Positions 436-25,607 of a DNA stretch of 32,000 bases are shown piece after piece (the stretch's first letter is position 1; each line of letters begins with the position of its first letter). The position numbers and the translations under genes were made by a program. The notes under the pieces were generated by a model. It saw only the letters and a program-made list of their open reading frames with translations, did no database searches and had not been told where the DNA came from. The DNA comes from Ruminococcus albus 7 = DSM 20455 (GTDB taxonomy: Bacteria; Bacillota; Clostridia; Oscillospirales; Ruminococcaceae): contig NC_014833.1 of the NCBI RefSeq assembly GCF_000179635.2, positions 3,600,001 to 3,632,000 on the forward strand. The letters are read 5' to 3'.

Positions 436-1287
436 TCACACGCCGTGATGTTCCTTACCTGCTGTGAGAGTATTTTTCATTAGCATAGCGATAGTCATGG
501 GGCCGACGCCGCCGGGTACGGGAGTTATGAAGCCTGCTTTTTCTTTGCAGTCCTCAAAGTCAACGTCACCGCACAGCTTGCCGTTTTCATCGCGGTTCAT
601 ACCAACGTCGATAACTACAGCACCCTCCTTGATATAGTCAGCAGTGACCATCTTAGCTCTGCCTACAGCAGCGACAAGTATATCAGCCCTTGCGCATACC
701 TCTTTAAGGTTCTTGGTCTTTGAATGTGTGATAGTAACAGTGCCGTTCTCATGCAGCAGCAGCATAGCCTGGGGCTTGCCCACGATATTGCTTCTGCCGA
801 TAACTACGCACTCCTTGCCTGCAACTTCTGTGCCTGTAGACTTTATAAGCTCCATAACGCCCGCAGGTGTGCAGGGCAGGAAGCTGTAATCACCTATCAT
901 TATCTTGCCCACATTTACAGGGTGGAAAGCGTCAACGTCCTTGTCGGGGCGGATGTTGTTAATGATTATCTTATCATCAAGGTGCTTTGGCAGAGGGAGC
1001 TGTACAAGTATACCGTCCACCTTGTCATCCTTGTTGAGCTTGTCTACCAGCGCCAGAAGTTCTTCCTCGGTAGTTTCAGCAGGCAGTGCATACTTGTATG
1101 AATTGAATCCTACAGCCTCGCAAGCCTTTTCCTTGTTCTTTACGTACACCTGTGAAGCAGGGTCGTCACCGACTATAACTACTGCCAGACCTATCTCGAT
1201 GCCCTTGGCCTTCAGTGCCTCGACTTCCTGTCTGATGCCTTCTTTTACCTGTGCCGATACTGCCTTGCCGTCGATTATGTTTGCCAT
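436..1287 (-). CDS. folD: Bifunctional methylenetetrahydrofolate dehydrogenase/cyclohydrolase
   Basis: 283 aa. The N-terminus [50 protein letters not shown] and [10 protein letters not shown] are classic FolD motifs. AAGGAGG RBS upstream. Confidence 0.95.
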
Positions 1288-1368
1288 ATTAATGACCTCC
1301 TTATTTTTATGGATATCCCCTCTGTATCATCACTATTTTTATTGCAAGTCAACATAGTTGATCAGATA

Positions 1369-2610: not shown

Positions 2611-2616
2611 TTCAAA

Positions 2617-3900: not shown

Positions 3901-5173
3901 CGGCAGTATCCTCCTTTGCTTTCAGCACGAACACTGAATCCTCCTTGAAACTCTTTGCACACTCCGTCACCTGTTCCGCAGTTATGCGGTCGATGATATC
4001 GCATACCTCCTCGGGGGTATAGGCAGTGCCGCGCGATTCCTGAGCCCTGTACCATGCAGCCATATCCCACTCGGAATCATAGTTCGCCATGAAATTGCTC
4101 TTTACGAATCTCTTGGTGTTTTCCAGTTCATCCGCAGTAAAATCGCCTGTCTGCACAGCCACTATCTGCTCACGGATAGCCTCCTGCGCCTTTTTGATAT
4201 TTACAGCATCCACACCGCTCTCTATCAGCATAACACCCTTGAGCTCGCTGTAGTAGCTGTCACAGCTGTAGCAAAGCGAAAGCTTTTCACGTACATTGGC
4301 AAAAAGCTTTGAGAATGCCGAACCGCCCAGCAGCCATGAAGTCAGCTTGCACACATAAATATCCTCATAGTCGGATTTGTATGCCATGAACATCTTGCAC
4401 TGCTTGACATCCATGTATTCCTCTTTTTCGCAAACTTCCTTTTTAAGAGGTGAAAACGCTCTGAATTCAGCTTTGATGACATTCTTTCGCTCCAGCTTTG
4501 AGAATGCTTCTCTGAGCATATCAACAGCACTGTCTATCTCACCGCCGCCGCATATCATAAGATCTATCTCAGCACTCTCCAGAAGATATCTGTACTGCGA
4601 CATCAGCTCCTCCTGCGTAAGGCTCTCAGCCCTCTCCATAGTACCAAGATCGGTATTGGCAGCAGGTTCGCCTGCGTATATTATTTCCTTCGCCTTGCTG
4701 AAAGCATAAGACCTCTTATCATTCACCGATGCGGCTATATTGTCAATAAGCTCCTGTTTTCTCAGCCTGAAATAATTCTCATTGAACTTACCGTCCTTGA
4801 TATCAGGACTCAGCACACAGAGCAGCAGCTGCCTTACAGCCTCCTCCGATATTTTTTCACCGTCAATGGTGTACTTATCCATGATCATATTCATGGATAT
4901 GCCCATTGACTGATGATCGCTGATATTCCCCGAAAGAGCACCTATGGAAGTACCATAAAGCCCCATGAACTTTGAGGAAAGTTCGCTCCTTGAAGGAACC
5001 TCAGAATTTGAAGTCACCAAAAGCGACATCAGCAGCGAATTTGCACCAGTATAATCAGGATCAATCGGAACAACGAATCTCACCCTGACTATATTCGTCT
5101 TGTACTTCGGATCAATTATCTGTGTAAGGGTGATGCCCTCACCGATGACCGATCTATCGTATTTTATCGCCAT
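3893..5173 (-). CDS. M16-like peptidase partner, probably non-catalytic
   Basis: 426 aa. Overlaps the downstream M16 gene by 8 nt (translational coupling). Similar length and architecture, but I see no HxxEH motif. Confidence 0.7.
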   Translation of the reverse strand: MAIKYDRSVIGEGITLTQIIDPKYKTNIVRVRFVVPIDPDYTGANSLLMSLLVTSNSEVPSRSELSSKFMGLYGTSIGALSGNISDHQSMGISMNMIMDKYTIDGEKISEEAVRQLLLCVLSPDIKDGKFNENYFRLRKQELIDNIAASVNDKRSYAFSKAKEIIYAGEPAANTDLGTMERAESLTQEELMSQYRYLLESAEIDLMICGGGEIDSAVDMLREAFSKLERKNVIKAEFRAFSPLKKEVCEKEEYMDVKQCKMFMAYKSDYEDIYVCKLTSWLLGGSAFSKLFANVREKLSLCYSCDSYYSELKGVMLIESGVDAVNIKKAQEAIREQIVAVQTGDFTADELENTKRFVKSNFMANYDSEWDMAAWYRAQESRGTAYTPEEVCDIIDRITAEQVTECAKSFKEDSVFVLKAKEDTADE

Positions 5174-5293
5174 TTACATTCTCCATTCTATGAACTGCCC
5201 TTAAACAGGCATAAAATATACCAAATTATATTATACCACAAACTATCAGGATTTTCCACCCATTTCACAATATTTTCATTTTGACAGTATCGC

Positions 5294-5323
5294 AAAAAAA
5301 GACAGCCGACAAATACAGCTGTC
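5294..5323 (-). terminator. Rho-independent terminator after the 111-aa ORF
   Basis: On the minus strand, GACAGC-N11-GCTGTC is followed by T7 (plus-strand A7 at 5294-5300). Confidence 0.6.
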
Positions 5324-5353
5324 CTTATTACTTATTTAGCTAATACAAGTCCG

Positions 5354-5689
5354 TTACACAGGAAAATCAATACCATCCGCCGAAACAGCATCACAGGTCT
5401 CATCTACCCATACTATCAGTCTCTTAACAAACTTGGGTGTTATTGTCTGCGGCACATCAAATGGCAGCAAAAACCTGTTCCAGCCTATACTTCCGGCATT
5501 TCGGAATCTCCTCCCCTTGCTTATCACGTAGGGTGTTTCAGTACCCAGCGGACAGCTCAATATCAAATGCTTATCGGGCGATATAACATTCAATATATAG
5601 TAGTCACTATCATCATCGAGTACAACATACCATAAATACGTAGTATCTCCGACGCATATACTTCGTCTTTTTTCAGAATTTATACCCAT
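5354..5689 (-). CDS. Hypothetical protein (111 aa)
   Basis: ORF lying 4 nt downstream of the GGDEF gene on the same strand. No motif recognised. Confidence 0.5.
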   Translation of the reverse strand: MGINSEKRRSICVGDTTYLWYVVLDDDSDYYILNVISPDKHLILSCPLGTETPYVISKGRRFRNAGSIGWNRFLLPFDVPQTITPKFVKRLIVWVDETCDAVSADGIDFPV

Positions 5690-5693
5690 AGAT

Positions 5694-6704
5694 TTACCCT
5701 ATGACTTTGTTTTTACCGCTTTTTTTGCCATAATAAAGCTTGTTATCAACTACCTGTATCCATTCATCCAAAGTTCTGCCTTTTCTTGCAGGAGCCACAC
5801 CGACAGTTATTGTAATGGGTATTGACTTTCCTTCAAATTCAACAGGAGATGAAGCAATATCAGAACGTAATTTTTCGATAATTTTCATAACTTCATCATC
5901 ATTGTTGAACAGTATAAGGAACTCCTCACCGCCCCACCTTGCTATATCACAACCTGCACAGGTATCCTTCAATTTCTTAGATATAACTTTAAGCACTTCG
6001 TCACCGGCATTGTGACCGTAAACATCATTTATTGTCTTAAAATCGTCGATATCCGCCATCGCCAGCACAGCAGTTTCTTTCATACTGTTGACTTCTGTAA
6101 GTCGGTCGATCATATAATGTCTGTTGTAAAGATCTGTCAGTCTGTCCTTGTGTGCCATTTGAGTCAGCTTGATCTCCGAATTGATTATAGAACGTATCTG
6201 CTTATTTATGTAGATAATCAAAAAAGAAAATACTATCAATGAATTTGTGAACAAAAATAAAAGTGAGTATTTGTTATCCCTTTCATAAATAGGACCATTT
6301 ATCCGAACATACCCCATTATAATGAAATAAAATGCAGCCACACAAATACTGATATTCATAGGTCTGACAGTTTTTCCGCCCAATTTGAAAGCCAGATACT
6401 CTGAGGAATAAATAACAGGTATCATCGAAAAACAGTACAGATGAAATCCGTAACTATCACCGAGGCAGACGGTGGTTACCCCCATATACAAGGTTATCCA
6501 CGCATAAACTATCCATAAATAGGTATCAAGTTTATTTTTGTAGATGAGAATAAAATTAAAAATATATAAAAACAGCGTCGGTATACTGAAATAAACAAGA
6601 AAATCAGCATCAAGCTTTTTAAAAAATATCATAAGAAAGAAAACTATGAAAATTAAAGCTATATTCACACCGAAAGTCAGCTTTTTAATACCTTTATAAT
6701 TCAA
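5694..6704 (-). CDS. Membrane-bound diguanylate cyclase (GGDEF domain)
   Basis: The N-terminal ~170 aa are hydrophobic multi-TM. The C-terminus carries RLTDLYNRHY, DIDDFKTINDVYGH and the active-site motif GGEEF (RWGGEEFLILF). Confidence 0.85.
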   Translation of the reverse strand: MNYKGIKKLTFGVNIALIFIVFFLMIFFKKLDADFLVYFSIPTLFLYIFNFILIYKNKLDTYLWIVYAWITLYMGVTTVCLGDSYGFHLYCFSMIPVIYSSEYLAFKLGGKTVRPMNISICVAAFYFIIMGYVRINGPIYERDNKYSLLFLFTNSLIVFSFLIIYINKQIRSIINSEIKLTQMAHKDRLTDLYNRHYMIDRLTEVNSMKETAVLAMADIDDFKTINDVYGHNAGDEVLKVISKKLKDTCAGCDIARWGGEEFLILFNNDDEVMKIIEKLRSDIASSPVEFEGKSIPITITVGVAPARKGRTLDEWIQVVDNKLYYGKKSGKNKVIG

Positions 6705-6986
6705 AGATGTCTCCCCCTTTCAACATTCATATAATTCCATATTAATCATAACACATTATGAATAATTTTGCAACAAAAAAAACAATTTAACCCTAAACAA
6801 AAGCGTAAATCGTTTTTTGTTGGAAATACCCAAAATTCGCCCAATATATTCAAAAGGCATGATACAAGAAAATATCATGTCCCTTTATATTTTAAATATT
6901 TAATTCAAATATAACGTAGCTTTCTTTTCTTGATTTATTCAAGTAAGCAAAAGTTGTCTATTATGCATATTTCAAACAAATACTAT

Positions 6987-7014
6987 TGATTTTTCTGATA
7001 TAATATGCTATAAT
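6987..7014 (+). promoter_or_regulatory. SigA-type promoter with extended -10
   Basis: TTGATT (6987-6992), 16-nt spacer, TGcTATAAT (7006-7014), upstream of the 7053/7062 ORF. Confidence 0.5.
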
Positions 7015-7052
7015 ATATATAATTAAAGACAAATAACAATTGTTTTTAGGAG

Positions 7053-7292
7053 ATGAAGTATATGATGACTTTTTGGGTACTATTTGTTAATGATTTTTCT
7101 AAGAATGAGCGCTATACAAAAGTATACACAGCTATGATGGAAGCATATAATGAAATGGAGAGAATTAACCCCAGCGGCAGCAACCCTAACATGTTAACTA
7201 CGGTATCAAGACATAGTTTTAGAAAGAGGACAAAAGACTTTGAAAAGATGAATAATGAGTATTTCAAACAGCATGGCAAATATGCTTTTTAA
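7053..7292 (+). CDS. Hypothetical small protein (start more likely ATG 7062)
   Basis: AGGAG at 7048-7052 abuts ATG 7053, so the in-frame ATG at 7062 has better spacing. Promoter upstream and terminator downstream. Confidence 0.45.
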   Translation: MKYMMTFWVLFVNDFSKNERYTKVYTAMMEAYNEMERINPSGSNPNMLTTVSRHSFRKRTKDFEKMNNEYFKQHGKYAF

Positions 7293-7348
7293 AACACGAT
7301 ATTAATGATTTAATTACTGACGTCATAAGTTAATAAAGTAAAATAAGT

Positions 7349-7384
7349 AATCCCTTTACCTAATTGGCAAAGGGATTATTTGTT
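7349..7384 (+). terminator. Rho-independent terminator
   Basis: AATCCCTTT (7349-7357) pairs with AAAGGGATT (7369-7377), followed by ATTATTTGTT. Confidence 0.55.
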
Positions 7385-7386
7385 AT

Positions 7387-7494
7387 CTATTCGTCTTCTT
7401 CATACCCACTACATTCATGCTTATGTTCACAAAATTCGCATTCACATAAATCACTATAATTTCCTGTTTGCCAACAGATTTCATTATAGTTCAT
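7387..7494 (-). CDS. Possible 35-aa Cys-rich peptide (MNYNEICWQTGNYSDLCECEFCEHKHECSGYEEDE)
   Basis: My own translation of the minus strand. AGGTGA RBS about 5 nt upstream of the ATG. Below the ORF-track size cutoff. Confidence 0.3.
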   Translation of the reverse strand: MNYNEICWQTGNYSDLCECEFCEHKHECSGYEEDE

Positions 7495-7699
7495 AATATT
7501 CACCTTCTTCTATCTTCCATTTTAGGAAGAATAATACTTAAAGAAAAATTTTTTTCATCATGTGTTGTTTACTATATTTATCTAAAGCGTCTGATAATTT
7601 TTGTATTATAAACTAAATGTTATCAAGTGTATGGTTGTTTAATTTTATTGTTATTTTTGAATTGTGAATATTATTTTCTCTACTCATTATGTTATATTA

Positions 7700-7734
7700 A
7701 AATTCCTCGTGAGAAAAGTTATTTTCTCACGAGG
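7700..7734 (-). terminator. Terminator immediately 3' of the tRNA-Trp fragment
   Basis: Perfect 13-bp stem CCTCGTGAGAAAA (7705-7717) / TTTTCTCACGAGG (7722-7734) with a 4-nt loop. On the minus strand it is followed by AATTTTAAT. Confidence 0.65.
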
Positions 7735-7738
7735 ATAG

Positions 7739-7783
7739 CAGGGGCACCAAGGATCGAACTCGGGACACGCGGTTTTGGAGACT
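7739..7783 (-). pseudogene. Truncated tRNA-Trp(CCA): 3' half only; putative att site of the integrated element
   Basis: The minus strand reads GTCTCCAAAACCGCGTGTCCCGAGTTCGATCCTTGGTGCCCCTGC. This gives the anticodon loop CTCCAAA, a T-arm CCGAG-TTCGATC-CTTGG and the 3' acceptor strand TGCCCCT plus G. The sequence 5' of it (TTATTTAA...) cannot form the D-arm or the 5' acceptor strand. Confidence 0.75.
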
Positions 7784-7929
7784 TAAATAACTTGTAATGA
7801 GTTATAAACACCTGATTTATTAGTACCTAACAACTTCTCCATGAAATCAATACATTATACCATACTAAATTTAATTAGTCAACATCACATTTAGTGTGGC
7901 TAAAGACACATTTATAACAACGATAAAAG

Positions 7930-7962
7930 ATAGCGTTTGACAGAAGTCAGGCGCTATTTTTT
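7930..7962 (+). terminator. Hairpin plus T6 at the element edge
   Basis: ATAGCGTTTGAC (7930-7941) pairs with GTCAGGCGCTAT (7946-7957) as 12 bp including two G-U pairs, loop AGAA, then TTTTTT. Confidence 0.45.
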
Positions 7963-8050
7963 ATGGCAGCGGCAGGGTCGCTCCCTGCGGGCAGTGCTTA
8001 GTGTTTTTCTCACTGCCCTTCCCGCTGTCAATAGATTGAAAAACACTAAG
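7963..8050. promoter_or_regulatory. Structured GC-rich region upstream of parA (candidate operator/centromere)
   Basis: Three pairings: CAGGG-TCGCT-CCCTG (7973-7987); GGGCAGTG (7989-7996) with CACTGCCC (8011-8018); and a perfect 12-bp inverted repeat CTTAGTGTTTTT (7997-8008) with AAAAACACTAAG (8039-8050). Confidence 0.35.
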
Positions 8051-8085
8051 ATTAAAATCCGCAACAGCGGTGAAAGGAAAAAACC

Positions 8086-8883
8086 ATGAAAAACACAAAA
8101 ATAATTGCAGTAGCAAATCAGAAAGGCGGCGTGGGCAAAACCACTACTACAATCAATGTAGGTGCAGCACTTGCTCTTACGGGCAAAAAGGTCCTGCTAA
8201 TTGACTTGGACACTCAGGAATCCCTTTCAAATTTCCTCGGGATCTACAATGCAGAGAACAATATAGGTAAAGCGCTCTACAAAACAGTTAACCGCGAAAC
8301 TATTGACCTTGCAGATTACATTGTCACAAACGAGGTCAACAGAGTTGACATAATCCCGGCAGAACTGAACACAATGCAGCGTATCGCCATAGACCTTGTA
8401 TCAGTCAGAAGCAAAGAAACAGTTTTTCGCAGATTGATAAATCAGAACAGTGAACTTCTTAGCAGATACGACTACATCCTGCTTGACTGCCCACCGTCCC
8501 TTAATGTTATATTGGATAACGCACTTACGGCAAGCCGTTATGTGCTTATCCCCTGTCAGGCTCACCCTCTGAGCTATCCCCCGCTGCCTAATCTCCTATT
8601 ACAGATAAATGAGATTCAAGCAGAACTGAATGAAAACATAGAAATCATCGGAATTGTGCCAACAATGGTTGACAGGAGCAACAACAGCAAAACAACGGTC
8701 GAAATGCTCCGCGGTAATTACTCTGACATTGTTTTTGAAAGCGAGATAGAACGTATGGCTGTTGCCGCCAACTCTGCACTCACTGAAAAGGCAGTTGTTC
8801 TGTCAAACGCTAAGGACAACCGCGTATCACGTGAATACAAGGCTCTCACTGATGAGCTTGTAAGTCGTATCGAGGGGGTGTAA
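8086..8883 (+). CDS. parA: ParA/Soj-family partition ATPase
   Basis: Deviant Walker A KIIAVANQKGGVGKTTT, followed by LIDLDTQ and ILLDCPPSL. Confidence 0.9.
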   Translation: MKNTKIIAVANQKGGVGKTTTTINVGAALALTGKKVLLIDLDTQESLSNFLGIYNAENNIGKALYKTVNRETIDLADYIVTNEVNRVDIIPAELNTMQRIAIDLVSVRSKETVFRRLINQNSELLSRYDYILLDCPPSLNVILDNALTASRYVLIPCQAHPLSYPPLPNLLLQINEIQAELNENIEIIGIVPTMVDRSNNSKTTVEMLRGNYSDIVFESEIERMAVAANSALTEKAVVLSNAKDNRVSREYKALTDELVSRIEGV

Positions 8884-8886
8884 GGC

Positions 8887-9807
8887 ATGAAATTTGATAA
8901 AGTAAGTGAAACATTCTCCGAGAGAAAGGAAAAAGGAAGTATAAAAGAAAGCCTTATCTCAGCTGAGGAAGTTCTGAACGAGATAACCGAGATAGCTATG
9001 CACAAGCTTGATATGTACACAGACGAGGATGGAAATCAGCCTTTTGACATAGACGATGAAAAAGTTGAAGCCCTGAGCGAAAGTATAAAAGAGAATGGGC
9101 AGCTGGAACCTATCATCGTTCGTAAAAAGAATGGTAGGTATCAGATACTCAGCGGTCATCATAGATACCTCGCTCTGAAGTCGATAACTGCAATGTATGC
9201 ACTTGCAACTGTGGTCGATGTATCCGACCTTAAAGCCTACATGATAGTGTGCGAAAGCAACATCCATCATGCGGCTCCCCCGCCCTCTAAGCTTTGTAAG
9301 ATTTTCCTGCGGTATCGTGCCGCAGGAAAAGAAGAGAAGATAACCGCCGATCAGCTTGCTAAGATGTTCGGCATCAGCCGTGAACAGATGTATCGCATAA
9401 TTGCTATGGACACACTTACAACACCGATGCAGGAACTGGTCGATGCAGGACTTATCTCAACCAACAGCATAAAACAGCTGAGAACACTTACCCCTGACCA
9501 ACAGGATACGCTTGCTGACTATGTTTATAATGAGGACAAAAAGCTTAACAAGGCGAAATGTGACAAGGTCATAGATCTGTTTATCACTAATGCAAATGCA
9601 ACGGTAGAAGATATTGACGAGTGTCTGAACAGTGACGATAAAGAAAAGGAACCTGCCAACAACTACAATGCTATGAAGAAAATGAGCAAAGAACAGCTGG
9701 CTGACTATATTTTTGCAAACCTTGCAAGCTTTACTTCGTCAGAAAAAATCCTTTCTTTTCTCTGTGATAATATTGGAAAGGAGAAGCAAAATCTTGAAAA
9801 ACATTGA
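8887..9807 (+). CDS. parB: ParB-like N-terminal domain protein
   Basis: Sits 3 nt after parA. It has EPIIVRKKNGRYQILSGHHRYLA (ParB/Srx fold). The arginine patch reads GHHRYLA instead of GERRxRA. A plausible HTH lies around QLAKMFGISREQMYRII. Confidence 0.75.
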   Translation: MKFDKVSETFSERKEKGSIKESLISAEEVLNEITEIAMHKLDMYTDEDGNQPFDIDDEKVEALSESIKENGQLEPIIVRKKNGRYQILSGHHRYLALKSITAMYALATVVDVSDLKAYMIVCESNIHHAAPPPSKLCKIFLRYRAAGKEEKITADQLAKMFGISREQMYRIIAMDTLTTPMQELVDAGLISTNSIKQLRTLTPDQQDTLADYVYNEDKKLNKAKCDKVIDLFITNANATVEDIDECLNSDDKEKEPANNYNAMKKMSKEQLADYIFANLASFTSSEKILSFLCDNIGKEKQNLEKH

Positions 9808-10177: not shown

Positions 10178-10182
10178 TAAAG

Positions 10183-10198
10183 TGTGTCTATAGACACA
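10183..10198. repeat. Palindrome TGTGTCTATAGACACA, copy 1
   Basis: Perfect 16-bp palindrome, 5 nt after stop 10175-10177. Confidence 0.9.
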
Positions 10199-10219
10199 GT
10201 TTATCAAGTGGTGCTGGGA

Positions 10220-10711: not shown

Positions 10712-11599
10712 ATGAAAGTACATAATCACGATTATCCCGACCACAAAACCGCAAGGCAGTGGGCAAAACAAGGCTTTTTACCAATAGATGGGGCAGAAGG
10801 AATAGAGTTATGGGCAAATCAATTTTGTCAGAATAAATACATCTATTACGGACCCGATGAAGTATCCAAGGCTACACCCGATCAGCTTTCTAACTTTTTC
10901 CGCTTTGAACGAGAAAACCGAAATCAAAGAGAAAAAGAAAAAAGGAAGCACAGAAACGCTGAACTAATTGCAGAAAACAAAGAGCTTAGAAAAGAGAATA
11001 ATCTACTTGAATTATCCTTATGCGAACTTGAAAGGACTGCAATTAGACTTATGCGAAACGTTGACATATCACCCGAAAAATCAGCGGATACTATTATAAT
11101 AGATACTGAAACAACAGGACTCAGTGAATTAGACGATGAATTGCTGCAAGTATCTATCATCGATGATGCAGGAAATGTTCTTTACAACAGCTATCTTCGC
11201 CCCTTATACCATACTTCATGGAAAGAAGCGGAATGTGTAAATAACATTACTCCGCGAATGGTAGCGGAGGCACCGACCATCTATGATGAAATGCCAAAGA
11301 TAAATGCTATCATAAAAGCTGCCAAAAAAATCATAGGCTTTAATACCGGGTTTGATGAAAACTTCCTTTATTTCTCCGGTGGAATTTCATGGATGAATAA
11401 AGAGGTCGTTGATGTAATGACGATGTTCGCGCCGATCTACGGTGAATGGAGCGAACAATACGACGATTATAAATGGCAAAACCTTATTAAAGCTGCCGAT
11501 TACTATGATTATGATTGGAGCAGCCGACCAGGTGAAGCACACAACAGTCTTGCAGACTGCTATGCTACCCTATATGTGTACAATAAGATCATTGAATAA
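10712..11599 (+). CDS. DEDDh 3'-5' exonuclease (DnaQ/epsilon-like) with an unknown N-terminal domain and coiled coil
   Basis: Exo I IIIDTETTG, Exo II GFNTGFDENFL, Exo III EAHNSLADCYATLYVY. AAGGAG RBS. The N-terminal ~125 aa are unassigned and include a basic heptad stretch, RENRNQREKEKRKHRNAELIAENKELRKEN. Confidence 0.8.
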   Translation: MKVHNHDYPDHKTARQWAKQGFLPIDGAEGIELWANQFCQNKYIYYGPDEVSKATPDQLSNFFRFERENRNQREKEKRKHRNAELIAENKELRKENNLLELSLCELERTAIRLMRNVDISPEKSADTIIIDTETTGLSELDDELLQVSIIDDAGNVLYNSYLRPLYHTSWKEAECVNNITPRMVAEAPTIYDEMPKINAIIKAAKKIIGFNTGFDENFLYFSGGISWMNKEVVDVMTMFAPIYGEWSEQYDDYKWQNLIKAADYYDYDWSSRPGEAHNSLADCYATLYVYNKIIE

Positions 11600-11603
11600 A
11601 AAG

Positions 11604-11619
11604 TGTGTCTATAGACACA
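11604..11619. repeat. Palindrome TGTGTCTATAGACACA, copy 2
   Basis: Perfect copy, 4 nt after stop 11597-11599 and 8 nt upstream of a consensus -35. Confidence 0.9.
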
Positions 11620-11627
11620 TTTTATTC

Positions 11628-17494: not shown

Positions 17495-17510
17495 TGTGTC
17501 TATAGACACA
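17495..17510. repeat. Palindrome TGTGTCTATAGACACA, copy 3
   Basis: Perfect copy, 1 nt after stop 17491-17493 and 17 nt upstream of a -35. Confidence 0.9.
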
Positions 17511-18769: not shown

Positions 18770-21700
18770 ATGTTCAAAAGCAAATTTTTGAAGAGAATCG
18801 GCACCGGGATAATGGCTGCTGTATGCGCTTTTTCTTTTGCGACCGCAGAAGTGAAACCGATGAAAGCAAAAGCTGCATCAGAAGCAGTTTTCCCAAACGC
18901 CGATCAGATCATCGCACAGGCAGCTACTCTTCTTGGAGGTAATTATTCAAGCGCCGGTGGTAAAGGCTATTACAATATGTATGATGCCAACAAAACACCT
19001 GTCGCTTACGATGTGAATTATACTCGTTCAGCCGGGGTAGACTGCTCAGGATTGGTGTACTATACCATGACAAAGCTTGGTTACTCAACATCAGGTTTCG
19101 CATGGAATCACCCCGTCCCCGTAGATACTACTCATTGGCTGAGCTACACCAATCCTACTATTTCATACAAAGGCACTACTAAGCCCCTTGAAATAGAAAA
19201 AATAAGAGTAAGTACCAACAATCACCCCTACTGGGAAAGGTCAAACGGTAGTACGATAGAGCCCGGCTCTATTGTTATCGGTGATCCTACGAATGGCAGT
19301 ACTGATCATGCATGGATTTACATGGGCGAATTCGATAATAAAGCAGCTGTTAAAGCTTATCTGAAAAAGATAGGTGTAAATCCTGCATATATCAACGATA
19401 AAAACATTCATGATAATGGTGACGGTGGTAATCACTGGCGCATTGAAGCACAGAGTACATACGGTGTTGTTATAAATAATGACACTAGCGGTAAATACAC
19501 AGGTGCCATGAGAGTTTCTTCTTTCAAATTAAACAGAAATGCCATGTTCACAATACAGAAAACTGAAATCGGCACCGGTAAGATAGTCGGAATTTCTAAG
19601 GTTGACGGAACATCAGCCGTATATGGTGTTTATACAGATAAAAGCTGTAAAAACAAAGTTGATGAAATAAAAATTAACAAAAACGGACTTGGCACTCTTA
19701 GCTTACCTTACGGTACATATTACGTCAAGGAAATAAAAGCTCCGACAGGCTATAATGTATCGAATGATGTTTATACTCTTGTTCCGAATGAAACTGTCAT
19801 CGTTAATGAGGTTAAAACGACTGGATCTATTCGCATTAACAAGACAGCTGAAGATGGTGTAAAAAACAGAGAATTTATGATCAGTTGGTTTGAAAACGGT
19901 GCAATCCATAGAGAACGTTTAAACACCAATACACTCGGTGTAGCAAAGATTGACGGGCTTAACCTCTATGATTATGACGGTGATGTTATAAATTACACTG
20001 TTTCAGAGATAAACAACGATCTGAGAAATGTTAATCCTAGCGCACAGACTGTTACTCTTTCAGAAGCCGATCCCAACAAGGATTATACCGTAGACCTCTA
20101 TTTTAACAATGAGTATAAATACGGCTCTCTCGTATTACACAAAACTCATACAGACGGCAACACCGATGATCGTACCTTTACTGTAACAGGTAACGGCGAA
20201 ACTTATACAGTAGTAACTCATGGCAATGAGCCTGCGGCACTTGAACATCTGCGTATGTACGATGATGATAACAACATCATTACATATACAATTCATGAGG
20301 AAAATGTTCCGGATAGATATGTTCAGCCCGAAGATCAGGAAGTAACTCTCCTGCTTAATCAGGTCACAGATGTATACATCGTTAACAGCCATGTTCCCGG
20401 TACACTCATACTCAAAAAGAGACATGAGGACGGTAAAACAGGTGACCGTAATTTCACAATCACAGGCAGTGATGGCTCCGTCAGAACTGCTGTAACACAT
20501 GGTAATGAGCCTACAGTTATTTCTGACCTTGATATCTATGATACTGACAGCAACCTCATAACATACACTATCCATGAGGAAAATACACCTGATAGATATG
20601 AACAGCCTGCGGATCAGGATGTTACTCTTGAATACAATAAATCCAAGACTGTAACAATCGTCAACAGACTGAAACGCGGTTCAATATCTATCCACAAGCA
20701 GAACAGTGAAACACTTGAGCCTGTTGCCGGTGCAAAATATGAAGTGACCTGCAACGAAGATATTTACAGCTCAAATGGCAAGGATATGATTCCTGCCGGC
20801 GAGCCCATATACACACTGGAAACCAACGAGGACGGCAACGCAGCAACACCTAAGTCCCTGCCTATCGCTCACACATATACACTCACAGAAGTATACGTGC
20901 CGGACGGATATATTTCAGGTGATCCTATCACTATCGAAATGAGTGATGACGGAACACAGCTTGAATACCGTACAACCATAAACGAAAAGCCCACAATCGT
21001 AAAGATAAGCAAGAAATCTCTCACAACAAAAGAAGAACTTGAAGGTGCAAAACTCACAGTAACCGATGATAACGGTACAATAATTGATGAATGGACATCT
21101 ACAACTACTGAACACACTATCATTGGTAAGCTTACAGTCGGCAAGGAATACACTCTGACAGAGGTTCTCGCTCCTGACGGATTCCTCACTGCGGAAAGCA
21201 TCAAGTTTACTGTAAATGAAGATGGCTCCTCAAATCACATTACGATGTATGATGAGGAAAAATCAGGCAGTATCGAAGTTCACAAAACTACCGAAGGCAT
21301 GATAAACGTTGAGGGAATAAGCTTTACACTCAGCGGTACATCAGACCACGGCACAGAAGTAAACACACAAGCAATTACTAACTCAGACGGTATTGCAACC
21401 TTTGAGAAGATCCCTGTGGGTACATACACCATCACCGAAGATGCTGAATCAGTGCCTTATGCGTACCTTGTGGCTGATGAACAGGAAGTATCTGTTATGT
21501 ACGCAGAAACAACTATCGCTGAGATTTACAACGATGAAAAGTCGGGAACTGTTGAGGTCCACAAGAATACTAAGAACAAGGGCAATATCGCTGATATCAA
21601 TTTCGTTCTTGAGGGTACATCTGACAGCGGCAGAGATGTAAAGCTGGAAGCTGTGACCGATAAGGATGGTAAGGCAGTATTTAACAAGGTGCCTGTTGGT

Positions 21701-22516
21701 ACATACACCATCACAGAGGACAAGGAAACAGTACCTACTGCATACCTTGTGGCTGAAAAGCAGGAAGTAAATGTACTGTATGCCGAAACATCTATTGCAG
21801 AAGTTTTCAATGATGAAAAGACAGGCAGCATTGAGATCCACAAGACAACCGAGGGTATGATAAACATCGAGGGTATCAAGTTTATCCTTGAGGGTGTATC
21901 CGACAGTGGAACAGATGTTCACGTTGAAGCTATTACTGACAAGGACGGTAAAGCTACTTTCAGTAATGTTCCTGTTGGAACATACTCTATCACAGAGGAT
22001 GAAAAGACTGTACCGACTGCATATATGGTAGCCGAAGAAACCGAGGTTACTGTGCTGTACGCTGAAACAGTAACTAAGGAGATATTCAACGGTGAAAGAT
22101 CCGGCAGCATCAGTATTCAGAAACAGACTGAGGGAATGAAAGATATCGCCGGAATTAATTTTGTGCTTGAAGGTACATCTGACAGCGGCAGAACTGTGAA
22201 GCTTGAAGCTGTGACCGACAAGGACGGTAAAGCTACATTCAATGGTGTGCCGATAGGTACATACACCATAACCGAGGACGGTAAATCTGTGCCTGCGGCT
22301 TATTTTGTAGCTGATGCTCAGACAGTAACTGTATTTGAAGCACAGACTTCAAACATTACTTTCGAGAACAAGAAAAAGCCTGATTCTTCAACTCCTTCTA
22401 CTTCATTAACCACCACAAGCAATCCTTCAACCGGAGTTGCTGCTAACGGTGCGTTTGCTGTAACAGCAATTGCACTCGCTCTCATGATCATTTCAAGAAA
22501 GCGTAAGAACAGCTAA
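18770..22516 (+). CDS. Sortase-anchored surface protein: N-terminal NlpC/P60 peptidoglycan hydrolase plus Cna-B/SpaA-type repeat domains
   Basis: Signal peptide. NlpC/P60 Cys motif GVDCSGLVYY and His motif DHAWIYMG. Many ~90-aa repeats with the pattern G(S/T)I.I.K....G...F.L.G....DG.A.F..(V/I)P.GTY.I.E. The C-terminus has NPSTG, a hydrophobic segment and RKRKNS. Confidence 0.9.
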   Translation: MFKSKFLKRIGTGIMAAVCAFSFATAEVKPMKAKAASEAVFPNADQIIAQAATLLGGNYSSAGGKGYYNMYDANKTPVAYDVNYTRSAGVDCSGLVYYTMTKLGYSTSGFAWNHPVPVDTTHWLSYTNPTISYKGTTKPLEIEKIRVSTNNHPYWERSNGSTIEPGSIVIGDPTNGSTDHAWIYMGEFDNKAAVKAYLKKIGVNPAYINDKNIHDNGDGGNHWRIEAQSTYGVVINNDTSGKYTGAMRVSSFKLNRNAMFTIQKTEIGTGKIVGISKVDGTSAVYGVYTDKSCKNKVDEIKINKNGLGTLSLPYGTYYVKEIKAPTGYNVSNDVYTLVPNETVIVNEVKTTGSIRINKTAEDGVKNREFMISWFENGAIHRERLNTNTLGVAKIDGLNLYDYDGDVINYTVSEINNDLRNVNPSAQTVTLSEADPNKDYTVDLYFNNEYKYGSLVLHKTHTDGNTDDRTFTVTGNGETYTVVTHGNEPAALEHLRMYDDDNNIITYTIHEENVPDRYVQPEDQEVTLLLNQVTDVYIVNSHVPGTLILKKRHEDGKTGDRNFTITGSDGSVRTAVTHGNEPTVISDLDIYDTDSNLITYTIHEENTPDRYEQPADQDVTLEYNKSKTVTIVNRLKRGSISIHKQNSETLEPVAGAKYEVTCNEDIYSSNGKDMIPAGEPIYTLETNEDGNAATPKSLPIAHTYTLTEVYVPDGYISGDPITIEMSDDGTQLEYRTTINEKPTIVKISKKSLTTKEELEGAKLTVTDDNGTIIDEWTSTTTEHTIIGKLTVGKEYTLTEVLAPDGFLTAESIKFTVNEDGSSNHITMYDEEKSGSIEVHKTTEGMINVEGISFTLSGTSDHGTEVNTQAITNSDGIATFEKIPVGTYTITEDAESVPYAYLVADEQEVSVMYAETTIAEIYNDEKSGTVEVHKNTKNKGNIADINFVLEGTSDSGRDVKLEAVTDKDGKAVFNKVPVGTYTITEDKETVPTAYLVAEKQEVNVLYAETSIAEVFNDEKTGSIEIHKTTEGMINIEGIKFILEGVSDSGTDVHVEAITDKDGKATFSNVPVGTYSITEDEKTVPTAYMVAEETEVTVLYAETVTKEIFNGERSGSISIQKQTEGMKDIAGINFVLEGTSDSGRTVKLEAVTDKDGKATFNGVPIGTYTITEDGKSVPAAYFVADAQTVTVFEAQTSNITFENKKKPDSSTPSTSLTTTSNPSTGVAANGAFAVTAIALALMIISRKRKNS
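21257..22372 (+). repeat. Four in-frame tandem repeats of 279 bp (93 aa) inside the surface-protein gene
   Basis: Units start at 21257, 21536, 21815 and 22094, each beginning E(K/R)(S/T)G(S/T)(I/V)... A more diverged pair lies at about 20123-20680. Confidence 0.85.
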
Positions 22517-22553: not shown

Positions 22554-22581
22554 AGCCGCCCTATACAGGCGGCTTGTTTGC
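22554..22581 (+). terminator. Terminator of the surface-protein gene
   Basis: AGCCGCC (22554-22560) pairs with GGCGGCT (22569-22575), followed by TGTTTG. Confidence 0.5.
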
Positions 22582-22652
22582 TGAATGTCTACGAACAATT
22601 TGTCTATAAACACATTTTCTCTTTATTCATTCGTAGGCATTCAGCAGATAAT
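22571..22652 (+). repeat. Composite hairpin repeat, copy 1 (16-bp arms around a degenerate palindrome)
   Basis: Arms GCTGAATGTCTACGAA (22580-22595) and TTCGTAGGCATTCAGC (22630-22645). The loop carries TTTGTCTATAAACACA (22599-22614). The ends are shared with copy 2. Confidence 0.8.
22599..22614. repeat. Palindrome family, degenerate copy (TTTGTCTATAAACACA)
   Basis: Matches the 16-bp consensus at 14 of 16 positions and sits in the loop of composite repeat 1. Confidence 0.6.
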
Positions 22653-22696
22653 TTGATCTTCACGATAAATTAATTAGTAAAGTAGGTGATGTAATT

Positions 22697-23101
22697 ATGA
22701 AATCATTAAACGATGAAAATAAATTTATTGAAAATGAAATCACAGTAATTGATCCTGAAATTCTTACAGTCAAAGAAAACAATACATTTAAGATTTTAAT
22801 GTATGGCTTTACCATCGATGAAGAAGAGATACCTCTTTTGTGTGATATAGAAAGTGTAGAACCACGCATACTGGGAGATACAGAAAAACAATATATTTTA
22901 CTCTTTAGATTTAAAAATCCAGTAAGAAACGATATATATGTACACTACACTGTGAATTTTGTATTTGACGATGACAGAGAGACTTTTATCAAAGCATACA
23001 ACTACATAAAAGAGCTAATTACCGTAGAACATATCTTACTTGATTTTTATTGCATTAACAAATTTAATCCTTTTTATGAGATCGGTTTTTTTTATGACTG
23101 A
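22697..23101 (+). CDS. Hypothetical protein (134 aa), very AT-rich
   Basis: AGGTGA RBS. No motif recognised. Confidence 0.55.
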   Translation: MKSLNDENKFIENEITVIDPEILTVKENNTFKILMYGFTIDEEEIPLLCDIESVEPRILGDTEKQYILLFRFKNPVRNDIYVHYTVNFVFDDDRETFIKAYNYIKELITVEHILLDFYCINKFNPFYEIGFFYD

Positions 23102-23145
23102 AAATGAGAAAAAGGCAAATTAAGGTAATCGAAAGGAGTATAAAT

Positions 23146-23910
23146 ATGGAACAAGGGTATTATGTACTGTGTAACGATATTAATGAGCTACTATCAATGA
23201 TAAAATATGGAGAACCGGGACTTCCTTATGTCATTGACTGGGCAGTACCTAATCTAAAAAAGCAAAAAATATTTCCGGTATATGTTCATGCTGGATTACT
23301 AGAAGAACTAGGGATAATCTTAAGTGATATCCGCGAATCAAAACCATCGTGTGAATACGATACTATTATAACATATAATGAGTTTTTGCAGAGCAAAACA
23401 TCACAAACCAAACAGGTAAATGCAACACAAAGCATAAAAGGAGGAACAAATATGAAAAGATACAGAATATGCTATGATAAAATGCTGGTAGCAAAAGGTG
23501 ATCTGAATATTAACGGAGAACTGTATGGTGGTGTCGCGGCATACCTTGAATATCAGGTATTCAATAAATCTTCCGGAGAAGAAATATTCTTCACTTTCGA
23601 CGATACTGATACTCCCCGAGAAGAAAAAATCGAAGGTCATTATCTTAATGACTTTTACGATCTTGCTTATGACAAGGAAAATGGCTTTATCATCATTCCA
23701 GCCGATGAACTGAAAGAGCTTAAAGATCACGTTATAAAATTCAGAGTTGGTATGTTCACTAAGAGCATAGATAACAATGGATGTTTAGAAGATGTTTCCA
23801 TAACCGAAAAACAGTTCGTAAAGATACTCAAAGATAATCCGCAATCATTCGACACAGCAGATAACAATTTCGCTCAGAATTGTGGTGTTACATTCAACAT
23901 CATTGGATAA
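23146..23910 (+). CDS. Hypothetical protein (254 aa; possibly two products)
   Basis: AAAGGAG 23132-23138 before ATG 23146. An internal in-frame AAAGGAGG (23437-23444) lies 7 nt before ATG 23452. Confidence 0.55.
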   Translation: MEQGYYVLCNDINELLSMIKYGEPGLPYVIDWAVPNLKKQKIFPVYVHAGLLEELGIILSDIRESKPSCEYDTIITYNEFLQSKTSQTKQVNATQSIKGGTNMKRYRICYDKMLVAKGDLNINGELYGGVAAYLEYQVFNKSSGEEIFFTFDDTDTPREEKIEGHYLNDFYDLAYDKENGFIIIPADELKELKDHVIKFRVGMFTKSIDNNGCLEDVSITEKQFVKILKDNPQSFDTADNNFAQNCGVTFNIIG

Positions 23911-23929
23911 CAAAAAATACGAATTCTGT

Positions 23930-23965
23930 AAAAAAGCTGCCGACAACAATGCCGACAGCTTTTTT
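23930..23965. terminator. Bidirectional terminator between convergent genes
   Basis: AAAAAAGCTG (23930-23939) pairs with CAGCTTTTTT (23956-23965). Confidence 0.5.
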
Positions 23966-23967
23966 GC

Positions 23968-24375
23968 TTAGATCCTATCAAGTAACTCCGACGGTTTGAG
24001 CGCAGGAATTTTACTATCCTTAAAATCACGAATGTTTCTGGTTACAATAAAATCCGCATTGATCCTACTTGCCTGACACATCTGTAAAGCATCTTCATAA
24101 TCAGAAGTGAGCATTTCTGCCGCTGAATTAAGGTCGGATGATTTAAGATCAACGACTTCAAAAATCATAAGTATCTGCTTTATTAGCTGCTCCGTTTTCT
24201 TAGGATCAAGTTCCTTGCGCAGGATGTACACAATATTCGGTACAGTGAGTGCAGAAACATATCCATCGATTTTGTTTACCTCGCAGTATTTCCAAATCTT
24301 TGATGAATTTTCTACAAAATCCGGTCGATTGCAGAGAACGTCAAGGATCACATTTGTATCAATCAAGATCTTCAT
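23968..24375 (-). CDS. vapC: PIN-domain toxin (VapC-type ribonuclease)
   Basis: MKILIDTNVILDVL opens with the first PIN acidic residue. 135 aa. Overlaps the upstream antitoxin gene by 17 nt. Confidence 0.85.
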   Translation of the reverse strand: MKILIDTNVILDVLCNRPDFVENSSKIWKYCEVNKIDGYVSALTVPNIVYILRKELDPKKTEQLIKQILMIFEVVDLKSSDLNSAAEMLTSDYEDALQMCQASRINADFIVTRNIRDFKDSKIPALKPSELLDRI

Positions 24376-24592
24376 GTTTCTTTAACCTTTCCGCGCGAAT
24401 TTCTTTTTCATCATAATCATTTTTTAGAACTCCTGTAAGCGAGTCCGTTAGAAAAGAAACCGTAGACTTATGTGAAACCAGTCTGGCAACTTCTTTTCCG
24501 TTTTTGAGTATGATTATCTCGCCGCCTTGCTGAACTTCTTGTAGATACTGACCGAAGTTATTTTGAAAATCAGTTGCTGTTGCAGTAATCAT
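24359..24592 (-). CDS. Phd/YefM-family antitoxin
   Basis: 77 aa. The N-terminus ITATATDFQNNFGQYLQEVQQGGEIIILKNGKEVARLVS fits the Phd/YefM pattern. GGAGGTG RBS. Confidence 0.8.
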   Translation of the reverse strand: MITATATDFQNNFGQYLQEVQQGGEIIILKNGKEVARLVSHKSTVSFLTDSLTGVLKNDYDEKEIRAERLKKHEDLD

Positions 24593-24623
24593 AAAAACAC
24601 CTCCATGTTTTTTAGCTAATATA

Positions 24624-24652
24624 AGTATATCATATTTTAGCTAAAATGTCAA
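24624..24652 (-). promoter_or_regulatory. Toxin-antitoxin promoter TTGACA-17-TATACT with two TTAGCTAA palindromic boxes
   Basis: On the minus strand: TTGACA (24652-24647), 17-nt spacer, TGaTATACT (-10 at 24629-24624). TTAGCTAA occurs at 24637-24644 (in the spacer) and at 24612-24619 (downstream of the -10). Confidence 0.65.
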
Positions 24653-24675
24653 TGGATATTTTAGTAACGCAGAAA

Positions 24676-24761
24676 GGCTTGTTTGCTGAATGCCTGCGAA
24701 ACTGTGTCTATAGACACACTCCCCCTCCCCCATTATTATTCGCAGGCATTCAGCAGATAAT
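24676..24761 (+). repeat. Composite hairpin repeat, copy 2
   Basis: Perfect 16-bp arms GCTGAATGCCTGCGAA (24685-24700) and TTCGCAGGCATTCAGC (24739-24754). The loop carries the perfect palindrome and a C-rich tract. Confidence 0.85.
24703..24718. repeat. Palindrome TGTGTCTATAGACACA, copy 5
   Basis: Perfect 16-bp palindrome in the loop of composite repeat 2. Confidence 0.9.
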
Positions 24762-24803: not shown

Positions 24804-25607
24804 TTGAGAATCCAAGTATCCGCGTCCAGGTATACCCCGCCTGCGGGAGATACCAACAACACAAGAGGTTTTGCATCAGTCAAGTTCCAGAACGACAATG
24901 GTGATGAGTATATGCTCGAACGTATAACTATCAGAGAGTCAGCCAACGGAATGTACGTCAGCCTACCGACCGTAGCACGTAATGCCAAGGTCAACGGTTC
25001 TCCGGTGTATGATTCAAACGGTAATCCCAAAAAAGAATTTACAGAGGTCCTGCACCCTGTAAACAACGCTGCACGTACTGAATTGTGTAACGCCATCATG
25101 GAGCGCTGGAGGGCGAATGACAGAGAGTATGCCGAGTTCAATATCCTTGGTAATACTCAGTTTGAGATGAGCAAGATCAACGTCAACCTGCACAGCGATC
25201 AGGCAAAACACCTTGTCGGAATCGGCTCGGTAACATTCGGTGATGCTTTTAAACTTGACAGCATCATGGTCAAAGAGGGCAGCAAGGGCGAATTCCTTGA
25301 TTTGCCCAGCTATCGCACAAAAAAATATGATCCCGAAACAAAGCAGATAGTGATAGGCGCAGACGGACAGCCTGAGATAGACTACCGTGATTTGTTCCAC
25401 CCGAACACCCGAGAAGCCTATGATAAGCTGACCAATGCAGTCCTGGATAGTCTTCACGCTAAACAACAGGCACAGGATAATAGCTATGCTGCATACGAAC
25501 AGCAGCAGAACAACTATAATCAGCAGAGTGCTGCCGCTGCCATTCCCGACTACGATCCATTCAGTGGTTTTGAAGATATAACACCGCAGTACGGACGCGG
25601 AAGATAA
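24804..25607 (+). CDS. Tandem SpoVG-like domain protein with a Gln/Asn-rich tail (TTG start)
   Basis: AAAGGAGG lies 8 nt before TTG 24804. Two segments match the SpoVG pattern: ...RGFASVKF...ITIRESANGMYVSLP...EFTEVLHPVN..AR.EL..AI and ...GIGSVTFGDAFKLDSIMVKEGSKGEFLDLPS...YRDLFHPNTREAYDKLTNAVL. Confidence 0.6.
   Translation: MRIQVSASRYTPPAGDTNNTRGFASVKFQNDNGDEYMLERITIRESANGMYVSLPTVARNAKVNGSPVYDSNGNPKKEFTEVLHPVNNAARTELCNAIMERWRANDREYAEFNILGNTQFEMSKINVNLHSDQAKHLVGIGSVTFGDAFKLDSIMVKEGSKGEFLDLPSYRTKKYDPETKQIVIGADGQPEIDYRDLFHPNTREAYDKLTNAVLDSLHAKQQAQDNSYAAYEQQQNNYNQQSAAAAIPDYDPFSGFEDITPQYGRGR

Follow-up and report, generated by a model that had tools for sequence, protein, structure and literature searches.

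A variable cargo slot between repeated structured units in an integrative conjugative element of Ruminococcus albus

In T4-like phages, shuffling within the hyperplastic regions is mediated by promoter-early stem-loop (PeSL) motifs, which combine a terminator with a promoter (PMC2839356, PMC4122927), while on pLS20 variable establishment genes lie behind the repeated regulatory sequences EGeRS1 and EGeRS2 (PMC8708921). Leading regions of conjugative plasmids are enriched in anti-defence, toxin-antitoxin (TA) and uncharacterised genes (PMC11541004). The locus described here lies in a stretch of 32,000 nucleotides from Ruminococcus albus 7 = DSM 20455 (contig NC_014833.1, positions 3,600,001 to 3,632,000 of the forward strand; hereafter the window) and is part of an integrative conjugative element (ICE). 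The slot, that is, the interval between a surface-protein gene and the genes for a SpoVG-like and a giant polyvalent protein, holds two open reading frames (ORFs), termed orphan 1 and orphan 2, and a PIN/Phd TA pair on the opposite strand, with a structured site at either end (Table 1). It is best explained, with a probability of about 0.65, as a hypervariable ICE cargo slot in an establishment-type region, the contents of which would be shuffled by recombination at repeated regulatory units. Clostridial conjugative elements of the gut and rumen are major vehicles of gene transfer, and how they become established in a new host has received little attention relative to plasmids of Proteobacteria and Bacillus. 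The locus is a naturally permuted test bed, with at least eight arrangements of a few small genes between fixed anchors, and the slot variants could reveal which cargo counters which host barrier. Its value lies in this permuted slot and in three conjugation-linked, unannotated protein families, rather than in a demonstrated new mechanism.

As in the PeSL system, short repeated regulatory units flank small ORFs, mostly without known function, and related genomes differ by insertions and deletions (indels) that end at the units, which seem to be the points of exchange between unrelated sequences. PeSLs differ in that they belong to phages rather than to an ICE of a Gram-positive anaerobe, and in that they carry an early promoter, whereas none was found in the R. 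albus unit, which consists of a terminator, a hairpin of about 22 bp with a palindrome, and a leader with a ribosome-binding site (RBS). Sequence similarity between the two is not expected. The locus could show whether the shuffling of cassettes in ICEs is driven by repeated regulatory units, in the way that PeSLs drive it in phages. With the EGeRS sequences, the locus shares the presence of repeated, structure-forming sequences that directly precede the RBS of highly variable operons for establishment or anti-restriction in a conjugative element of Firmicutes. EGeRS1 is, however, branched and about 325-500 nt long, whereas the R. albus sites are single hairpins of 80-100 nt, and EGeRS2 is a repressor-controlled promoter, whereas in the R. 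albus sites only the palindrome hints at a possible repressor.

The segment between the two sites had been described in an initial annotation as a cargo hotspot bounded by conserved structured sites, and a survey of the equivalent slot in related elements (L-numbers denote related loci from other elements, P-numbers related proteins) bears this out, as the position is hypervariable rather than occupied by invariant genes. At least eight different arrangements occur, in which A and B denote the two protein families that are joined in orphan 2 (see below). Orphan 1, the A-B fusion and the TA pair fill the slot of the window; B and the TA pair fill that of L024 (and of 16 similar places), L025, L028 and L042, which is the commonest form of the element; and orphan 1 with the A-B fusion, but without the TA pair, fills that of L007. 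A stands alone in L031 and L032, B precedes A as a separate gene in L044, B lies at the contig end in L045, and an HTH gene, a site and B follow one another in L043. Longer contents are found in L027 (a 180-aa gene, DUF6037, HTH, a duplicated surface-gene end with its site, B and the TA pair) and in L048 (a B-like gene, a PcfJ-like gene, a second B-like gene that is extended at its C-terminus, a 119-aa gene and an HTH gene). R. albus AR67 and L012 have a PcfJ-like gene, and L001 has B and an unrelated 467-aa gene, its SpoVG-like gene having been deleted at a degenerate site arm.

The indels that separate these forms fall at or beside the sites. In the commonest form, window position 22669 is joined directly to 23437, so that a 767-bp insertion with orphan 1 and A is absent, and B (152 aa) and the TA pair are kept. 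In L007, orphan 1 and orphan 2 are kept and 17 nt replace 23966-24678, that is, the whole TA operon with its promoter. The junctions thus pair as 22669/23437 and 23965/24678, of which 22669 lies in the leader, 23436/7 at the RBS, 23965 after the terminator and 24678 at the stem base. Because these are clean indels between near-identical elements, the cassette is not one unit, and judged by its relatives it resolves into three independent modules, namely the 767-bp insertion, the resident gene B and a 713-bp TA module. The comparisons support the view that the interval is a cargo slot of variable content, with conserved structured sites at its ends.

The separate acquisition of the segment had originally been argued from its base composition. 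The description itself is accurate: the segment (22653-24675) sits exactly between two structured repeats of about 80 nt, its G+C content is 33.9% (0.339, against 0.42 in the surface-protein gene and 0.478 in the SpoVG-like gene), and the 60-nt counts given for 22681-22740 and 21301-21360 (12/60 and 28/60) are exact. The segment ranks in the lowest 8% of the 2-kb windows of the element. As an argument for acquisition, G+C by itself is weak, since the stretch at 10.5-13 kb is more AT-rich (G+C of about 0.31) and low G+C is hence not unique to the segment; it is the comparative data that show separate acquisition instead. Within the segment, the most AT-rich stretch is 22670-23436 (G+C 0.301; 0.28 in the coding sequence of orphan 1), and the family B gene (0.357) and the TA module (0.369) are just mildly low.

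All plus-strand cargo genes are preceded by one composite unit. It starts with a GCCGCC...GGCGGC terminator, the T-tract of which runs into the left arm of a stem of 20-22 bp; the palindrome lies near the apex of this stem, and the unit continues with another, small hairpin and ends in a conserved leader that includes the RBS. Each boundary site of the window comprises such a stem around a 14-bp palindrome and measures 80-84 nt; the left site folds at -31.4 kcal/mol (z -6.4) and the right site at -50.4 kcal/mol (z -9.8), and the composite pattern was found twice in the window against an expectation of 0.00. In the relatives, the arrangement of GCCGCC-loop-GGCGGC and TTGTTTGCTG stands ahead of every site, and the right site with the leader and RBS of the SpoVG-like gene is near-identical in AR67, L007 and L024 despite different upstream cargo. 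The leader ...GATAAAGGAGnATAAAT is shared by B in L024 and A in L031, where the identical sequence ...ACGAAAACTTGATAAAGGAGnATAAAT abuts the ATG of either gene, and a conserved trailer ATATTMCCCCGCAGC... lies ahead of the terminator after A, PcfJ-like and HTH genes, so that ORFs appear to be exchanged almost exactly between conserved flanks. In an alignment of 13 distinct site copies, a small and closely related sample with >85% sequence identity, the stem is kept in all 13, with one compensatory pair (GC in seven copies, AU in six) and another that is UG in seven, CG in five and UA in one. Several invariant G.U pairs form on the sense (plus) strand only and the sense-strand fold is better by 6-7 kcal/mol (-50.4 against -43.9 and -31.4 against -24.3), which is suggestive, though only that, of a sense-strand RNA (or plus-strand single-stranded DNA, ssDNA) structure rather than of a template-strand ssDNA promoter.

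The question of strand bears on an alternative that is compatible with a cargo slot and differs in the primary role of the sites, which would be ssDNA elements (Frpo-like promoters or single-strand origins) on the transferred strand that express or prime the cargo, SpoVG-like and polyvalent genes upon entry into the recipient. Long hairpins do lie directly upstream of co-directional, establishment-type genes, a position that Frpo elements occupy in leading regions (PMC11541004), and the boundary units are devoid of a conserved double-stranded promoter. However, the stem forms no -35/-10 pair and none is conserved across the 13 copies, and the G.U(T) pairs (alignment columns 5-96, 7-94 and 17-84) favour the plus strand, whereas a promoter for plus-strand genes needs the template (minus) strand. 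As the sites are also far shorter than Frpo, this alternative is regarded as unlikely.

The same sites could be taken for attC-like hairpins of an integron-like cassette array, in which a dedicated recombinase would insert and excise promoterless ORFs. Short ORFs with imperfect-palindrome sites between them, indel junctions at or near the sites, and the duplicated site that flanks the inserted block of L027 are all in keeping with such an array, yet a recombinase domain is absent from the 26 window ORFs scanned and from the annotated neighbours in relatives. Moreover, the site copies are near-identical in sequence, whereas attC sites conserve structure and not sequence, the junctions lie at several positions rather than at a fixed crossover point, and the conserved trailer, terminator and leader reach well past the hairpin, as homologous recombination predicts; an integron-like origin is accordingly quite improbable. 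Under the preferred reading, the boundary units would instead provide portable stretches of homology at which elements recombine, each ORF being exchanged almost exactly from its start codon to its terminator, and would place the cargo under the regulation that also governs the SpoVG-like and polyvalent genes downstream. The slot of the window holds, in this reading, three separately acquired modules (orphan 1 with A, B, and the PIN-Phd operon), the ORF of A having become fused in frame to the resident B and the PIN-Phd addiction module having been added on the opposite strand under its own, presumably autoregulated, sigma-70-type promoter.

The initial annotation had counted two orphan proteins, and both ORFs are real, but they comprise three families rather than two. 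A word-index search with orphan 2 returned four relatives, all of which cover its C-terminal 60%, and when 1.84 billion representatives were scanned in full by HMMER, the query being orphan 1 joined to orphan 2, the 77 matches formed three non-overlapping sets. The set of orphan 1 consists of a single relative (P0008, 46% identity). Residues 1 to about 85 of orphan 2 match stand-alone proteins of about 90-100 aa (family A, 12 representatives), and residues 103-254 match about 60 stand-alone proteins of about 150-165 aa that start at the internal Met (family B). Orphan 2 is thereby identified, by homology, as an in-frame fusion of two normally separate families, and it is because of this fusion that the cassette is read as holding three protein families and not two orphans. 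In the window, A has no stop codon and reads into B, the homology to the A of L031 stops about 45 nt ahead of the RBS of B, and the internal ATG at 23452 keeps a strong RBS (AAAGGAGG); the A-B fusion, and probably free B too, are made from the locus. The sole gene in the equivalent slot of L031 and L032 is a family A member (P0007, 65% identity), and the 152-aa B gene stands alone in L024, L025, L027, L028 and L042. B is the most constant cargo and the usual occupant of the slot, and its conservation extends over some 60 clusters (50% identity) from plasmids and ICEs of Clostridia and Fusobacteria.

A third small cargo family (119 aa, MIYKI(M/I)NTGM...) was observed as a stand-alone gene in L048 (7573-7932) and as the N-terminal extension of P0004 (273 aa), where its frame continues into that of B. 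A cargo ORF unrelated to A is thus also fused to B via an RBS leader, the linker of P0004 (..KRGTNM..) being RBS-encoded and the same as in the A-B fusion of the window.

The lost stop codon of A, together with a frameshift that splits orphan 2 of L007 into 197 and 52 aa and the single relative of orphan 1, might suggest that the orphan ORFs are decaying, functionless remnants, and that fusion and frameshift alike are pseudogenisation in a recombination-scarred spacer. This is very improbable, given that all three families are under purifying selection (dN/dS of 0.19 for orphan 1, 0.35 for A and 0.14-0.21 for B, hence 0.14-0.35 overall), that the ribosome-binding sites are good, and that, beyond the breadth of family B, no fewer than nine independent assemblies carry the 254-aa ORF of orphan 2 intact.

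Orphan 1, A and B are all acidic (pI 4.5-5.0, with 4.5 for orphan 1) and gave zero matches against Pfam, NCBIfam, PHROGs, PADLOC and the PDB sequences, in agreement with the earlier statement that the orphans have no recognisable family, and they match no housekeeping family. A profile search of a set of 5.8 billion proteins returned only 'hypothetical' proteins without Pfam domains, and the extra Pfam domains of longer B-family members are uninformative. A kinship of B with an SSB from a B-family neighbourhood, or with family A, was considered and rejected, as hhalign shows no relation. Orphan 1, A and B are hence three unannotated protein families.

Among the neighbourhoods sampled, homologues of the three families are found almost only in conjugative elements. 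B follows a MobL relaxase gene, with Mrr_cat and SSB genes, in L034 (SSB-x-B); lies between a PcfJ-like gene and HTH-topoisomerase III in a type IV secretion system (T4SS) cluster with VirD4 and VirB4 in L036 and L037; in a Cetobacterium contig (L038) immediately precedes topoisomerase III; and in L039 is found between VirB4, upstream, and an HTH gene, not far from a Toprim fragment. It comes directly after a MobP2 relaxase and an LPD25 protein on the Terrisporobacter plasmid pTPHSE1, and on a C. botulinum plasmid it belongs to an extended row of small genes that also includes LPD11, PcfJ and Doc. Family A occurs among ArdC-N, Mrr_cat and SNase genes (L035; Mrr_cat-x-A-SNase), and P0008, the relative of orphan 1, lies between T4SS genes and topoisomerase III of another conjugative element, preceded by an HTH gene (L029). 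A search for homologues of orphan 2 (tblastn) and B in 50,697 phage records gave no match. The neighbourhoods also show B beside PcfJ-like genes repeatedly (PcfJ-B with a 10-nt gap in L036 and L037, B-PcfJ-B in L048), and the B and orphan 1 families are often directly upstream of topoisomerase III genes; this proximity may reflect a functional partnership.

The setting resembles the islands of leading regions (PMC11541004) and the neighbourhoods of polyvalent proteins (PMC5512222), in which small uncharacterised genes, TA pairs and methylase-, helicase- or ArdC-type proteins are likewise clustered, and the likeness extends to the B genes that adjoin relaxase, SSB, LPD25, LPD11 and PcfJ genes. 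It differs from leading-region islands in that the TA pair is on the opposite strand and that the slot is without a known anti-defence gene (none was recognised by Pfam, PADLOC, PHROGs or NCBIfam) and without an Frpo-like promoter. An accessory defence role, as originally suggested for the cassette, found no backing, since none of its five proteins matches a PADLOC-DB v2 family at E <= 0.1, and the context of conjugation and establishment points to establishment or anti-defence rather than to defence. In the establishment-type region, orphan 1, A, B, the polyvalent gene and all other genes except the TA pair point in one direction; the giant ORF lies beside the slot, and ArdC-N proteins occur in related loci. 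Judged from context alone, the most likely function of the small acidic proteins is in establishment in a new host, where they would have an anti-defence role or an accessory role in DNA processing.

Several observations weigh against this reading. Recombination at the sites is inferred from junctions in about 10 elements, and a conserved double-stranded sigma-70-type promoter was found in the boundary units neither by scan nor by inspection. The origin of transfer (oriT) and the relaxase gene lie outside the 32-kb window, so that a leading-region position and any assignment of the transferred strand would be conjectural; the orientation of the TA pair, opposite to the other slot genes, conflicts with the same-strand rule (PMC11541004); and B has no obvious conjugation genes around it in L033. 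Structural searches give no functional clue either: the profiles of families B and A had no match among PDB sequences, and AlphaFold2 yielded no usable model (pLDDT 43.7 for orphan 2 from a 5-sequence alignment and 42.0 for orphan 1 on its own). The Foldseek comparison proposed with the initial annotation returned nothing below E 0.1 in the PDB for the orphan 2 model, the best match of this poor model, PrgE of pCF10 (E 0.13, TM 0.11-0.16), not being meaningful.

A stronger version of the proposal is conceivable, if less likely than not. In that version, the terminator-hairpin-leader units would be a dedicated device of Clostridial ICEs for cassette exchange and co-regulation, equivalent to the PeSLs of phages, and would act as RNA structures of the sense strand in which an operator is embedded. 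The families of B, A and orphan 1 would have novel roles in establishment or anti-defence, B being a recurrent partner of PcfJ-like proteins and topoisomerase III genes, and the repeated in-frame fusions of upstream cargo ORFs to B via its RBS leader (A in the window, the 119-aa family in P0004) would be selected rather than accidental.

In the PIN/Phd pair, the antitoxin gene comes first and overlaps the start of the toxin gene by 17 nt. Besides the families listed in Table 1, the toxin matches PF01850 (E 1.1e-8) and the antitoxin matches TIGR01552 (E 3.7e-11, 42.2 bits against a cut-off of 20.8). The toxin falls below the cut-offs for VapC tRNA(fMet)-specific endonucleases (NF047863, 27.3 against 140 bits; NF010285, 15.9 against 143), and its candidate acidic residues (D6, D92/E94/D95 and D117) were read by eye from the sequence. 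No match was returned by phmmer for PIN or Phd against the PDB. The promoter has 11 of 12 consensus matches plus a TG extension, and two copies of the palindrome TTAGCTAA (24612-24619 and 24637-24644), which are candidate operators, flank the -10 element. From these features the pair is classed as a self-contained type II TA module with its own promoter, which most likely stabilises the element or the slot. It is similar to VapC(PIN)/Phd-YefM operons in having the antitoxin first with an overlapping PIN toxin, a sigma-70-type promoter with palindromic candidate operators, and the form of a compact mobile unit, and differs in that the R. albus toxin is a PIN_3 member under the VapC equivalog cut-off. 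TA modules are components of some defence systems, and orphan 1, orphan 2 and the PIN/Phd pair are adjacent and convergent in the window, but the idea that together they form one new, undescribed defence or abortive-infection system appears largely refuted, as presence/absence patterns show every component without the others in otherwise near-identical elements (L024, L025, L028, L042, L007, L031, L001, L045), PADLOC matches are nil, and PIN/Phd never adjoins distant A, B or orphan 1 homologues in the contexts inspected.

The two ORFs, the bidirectional terminator, the VapC/Phd pair and its consensus promoter are all placed as originally described (Table 1). For the terminator that separates B from the PIN gene, a stable fold is predicted on either strand (-18.2 and -26.1 kcal/mol, z -4.0 and -4.7), and L007 has kept this terminator although it is without the TA pair.

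Table 1. Features of the slot and its borders in window coordinates; the last row gives coordinates of the related loci.
Feature	Position	Strand	Details
Surface-protein gene	18770-22516	+	1248 aa; NlpC/P60 and SpaA repeats
Intrinsic terminator of surface-protein gene	22554-22574	+	GCCGCC...GGCGGC; terminator scan of both strands; first piece of left boundary unit
Left composite site	22572-22651	+	stem of about 22 bp; degenerate palindrome at 22600-22613
Insertion module (orphan 1 and family A part)	22670-23436	+	767 bp; AT-rich
Orphan 1	22697-23101	+	134 aa
Orphan 2	23146-23910	+	254 aa from ATG with RBS; open frame begins at 23104
Family A part of orphan 2	23146-23451	+	homology over about residues 1-85
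Family B gene	23452-23910	+	152 aa; internal ATG 23452; RBS AAAGGAGG at 23437-23444
Bidirectional intrinsic terminator, B / PIN gene	23928-23967	both	flanked by A6 and T6 runs
TA module	23966-24678	-	713 bp; either wholly present or wholly absent
PIN_3-domain toxin gene (VapC-like)	23968-24375	-	135 aa; PF13470, E 2.2e-21, match 1-115/115
Phd/YefM antitoxin gene	24359-24592	-	77 aa; PF02604, E 1.8e-11
TA promoter	24652-24624	-	TTGACA-17 nt-TATACT with TG extension; -35 at 24652-24647, -10 at 24629-24624
Right composite site	24677-24760	+	22-bp stem; perfect GTGTCTATAGACAC palindrome at 24704-24717 in apical region
SpoVG-domain gene	24804-25607	+	PF04026, E 1.8e-22; conserved right-hand slot anchor
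Palindrome copies	7896-7909, 10184-10197, 11605-11618, 17496-17509, 22600-22613, 24704-24717		
PcfJ-like/B neighbourhoods	L036 6590-8510; L048 3560-6758; L013 3685-8540; L012 361-1971		

The first part of the window (436-6704) is chromosomal, with folD, lgt and the genes of two M16 peptidases and of one GGDEF protein, all on the minus strand; from about 7 kb onwards the window carries plus-strand genes that are typical of a large conjugative element of Firmicutes, including those for ParA, ParB (8887-9807), an RNase T-type exonuclease, DUF3848 and DUF3849. The giant ORF begins at about 25.7 kb (about 25720) and runs past the window end at 32000; in a matching assembly it encodes 3387 aa with MutS_I, LPD25, DUF6908, SNF2 and helicase domains and a methylase-like C-terminal part, and is a 'polyvalent protein' as defined in PMC5512222, typical of conjugative elements. 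The giant ORF always follows the SpoVG-domain gene, an order that is kept in L002, L024, L025, L026, L031 and L032, and the same locus is present in GCA_000621285.1; a search of genome contigs for related loci with the SpoVG-like protein returned R. albus AR67 only. Orphan 1 is 100% identical to a protein assigned to R. albus. The integrase probably sits at the far end of the element, beyond the window.

The junction between chromosome and element (6700-8086) has a very low G+C content (0.25-0.32) and no long ORF, and ARAGORN found no tRNA gene in it. A 59-nt inverted repeat (78% complementary, with a 17-nt spacer) lies at 221-355, downstream of the folD gene end, and no Rfam family was found in the window. 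Within the surface-protein gene, 279-nt tandem repeats at 20213-22350 (four to five copies, 62-74% identical) encode SpaA/prealbumin-like domains, and the repeat number varies among relatives (proteins of 1248 and 1698 aa).

The palindrome GTGTCTATAGACAC of the boundary sites occurs six times in the element (two copies being degenerate), always between genes, against 0.07 expected, and the copies at 11605 and 17496 lie just upstream of strong sigma-70-like promoters (TTGACA...TATAAT and TTGATT...TGnTATACT). It looks like the target, be it an operator or a parS-like site, of a regulator that acts globally on the element, for example its ParB or an XRE-type protein, after the manner of KorB. A 17-mer of the site had nine matches in viral contigs, none with the palindrome or ICE genes, which were taken as chance, as were three of the nine matches of a metagenome scan for the site (L041, L047, L049). 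The RNase T-type exonuclease gene (10712-11599), within the most AT-rich part of the element (10.5-13 kb), is bracketed by palindrome-bearing 26-nt repeats that are 96% identical (10179-10204 and 11600-11625), and this region may be a second cargo slot.

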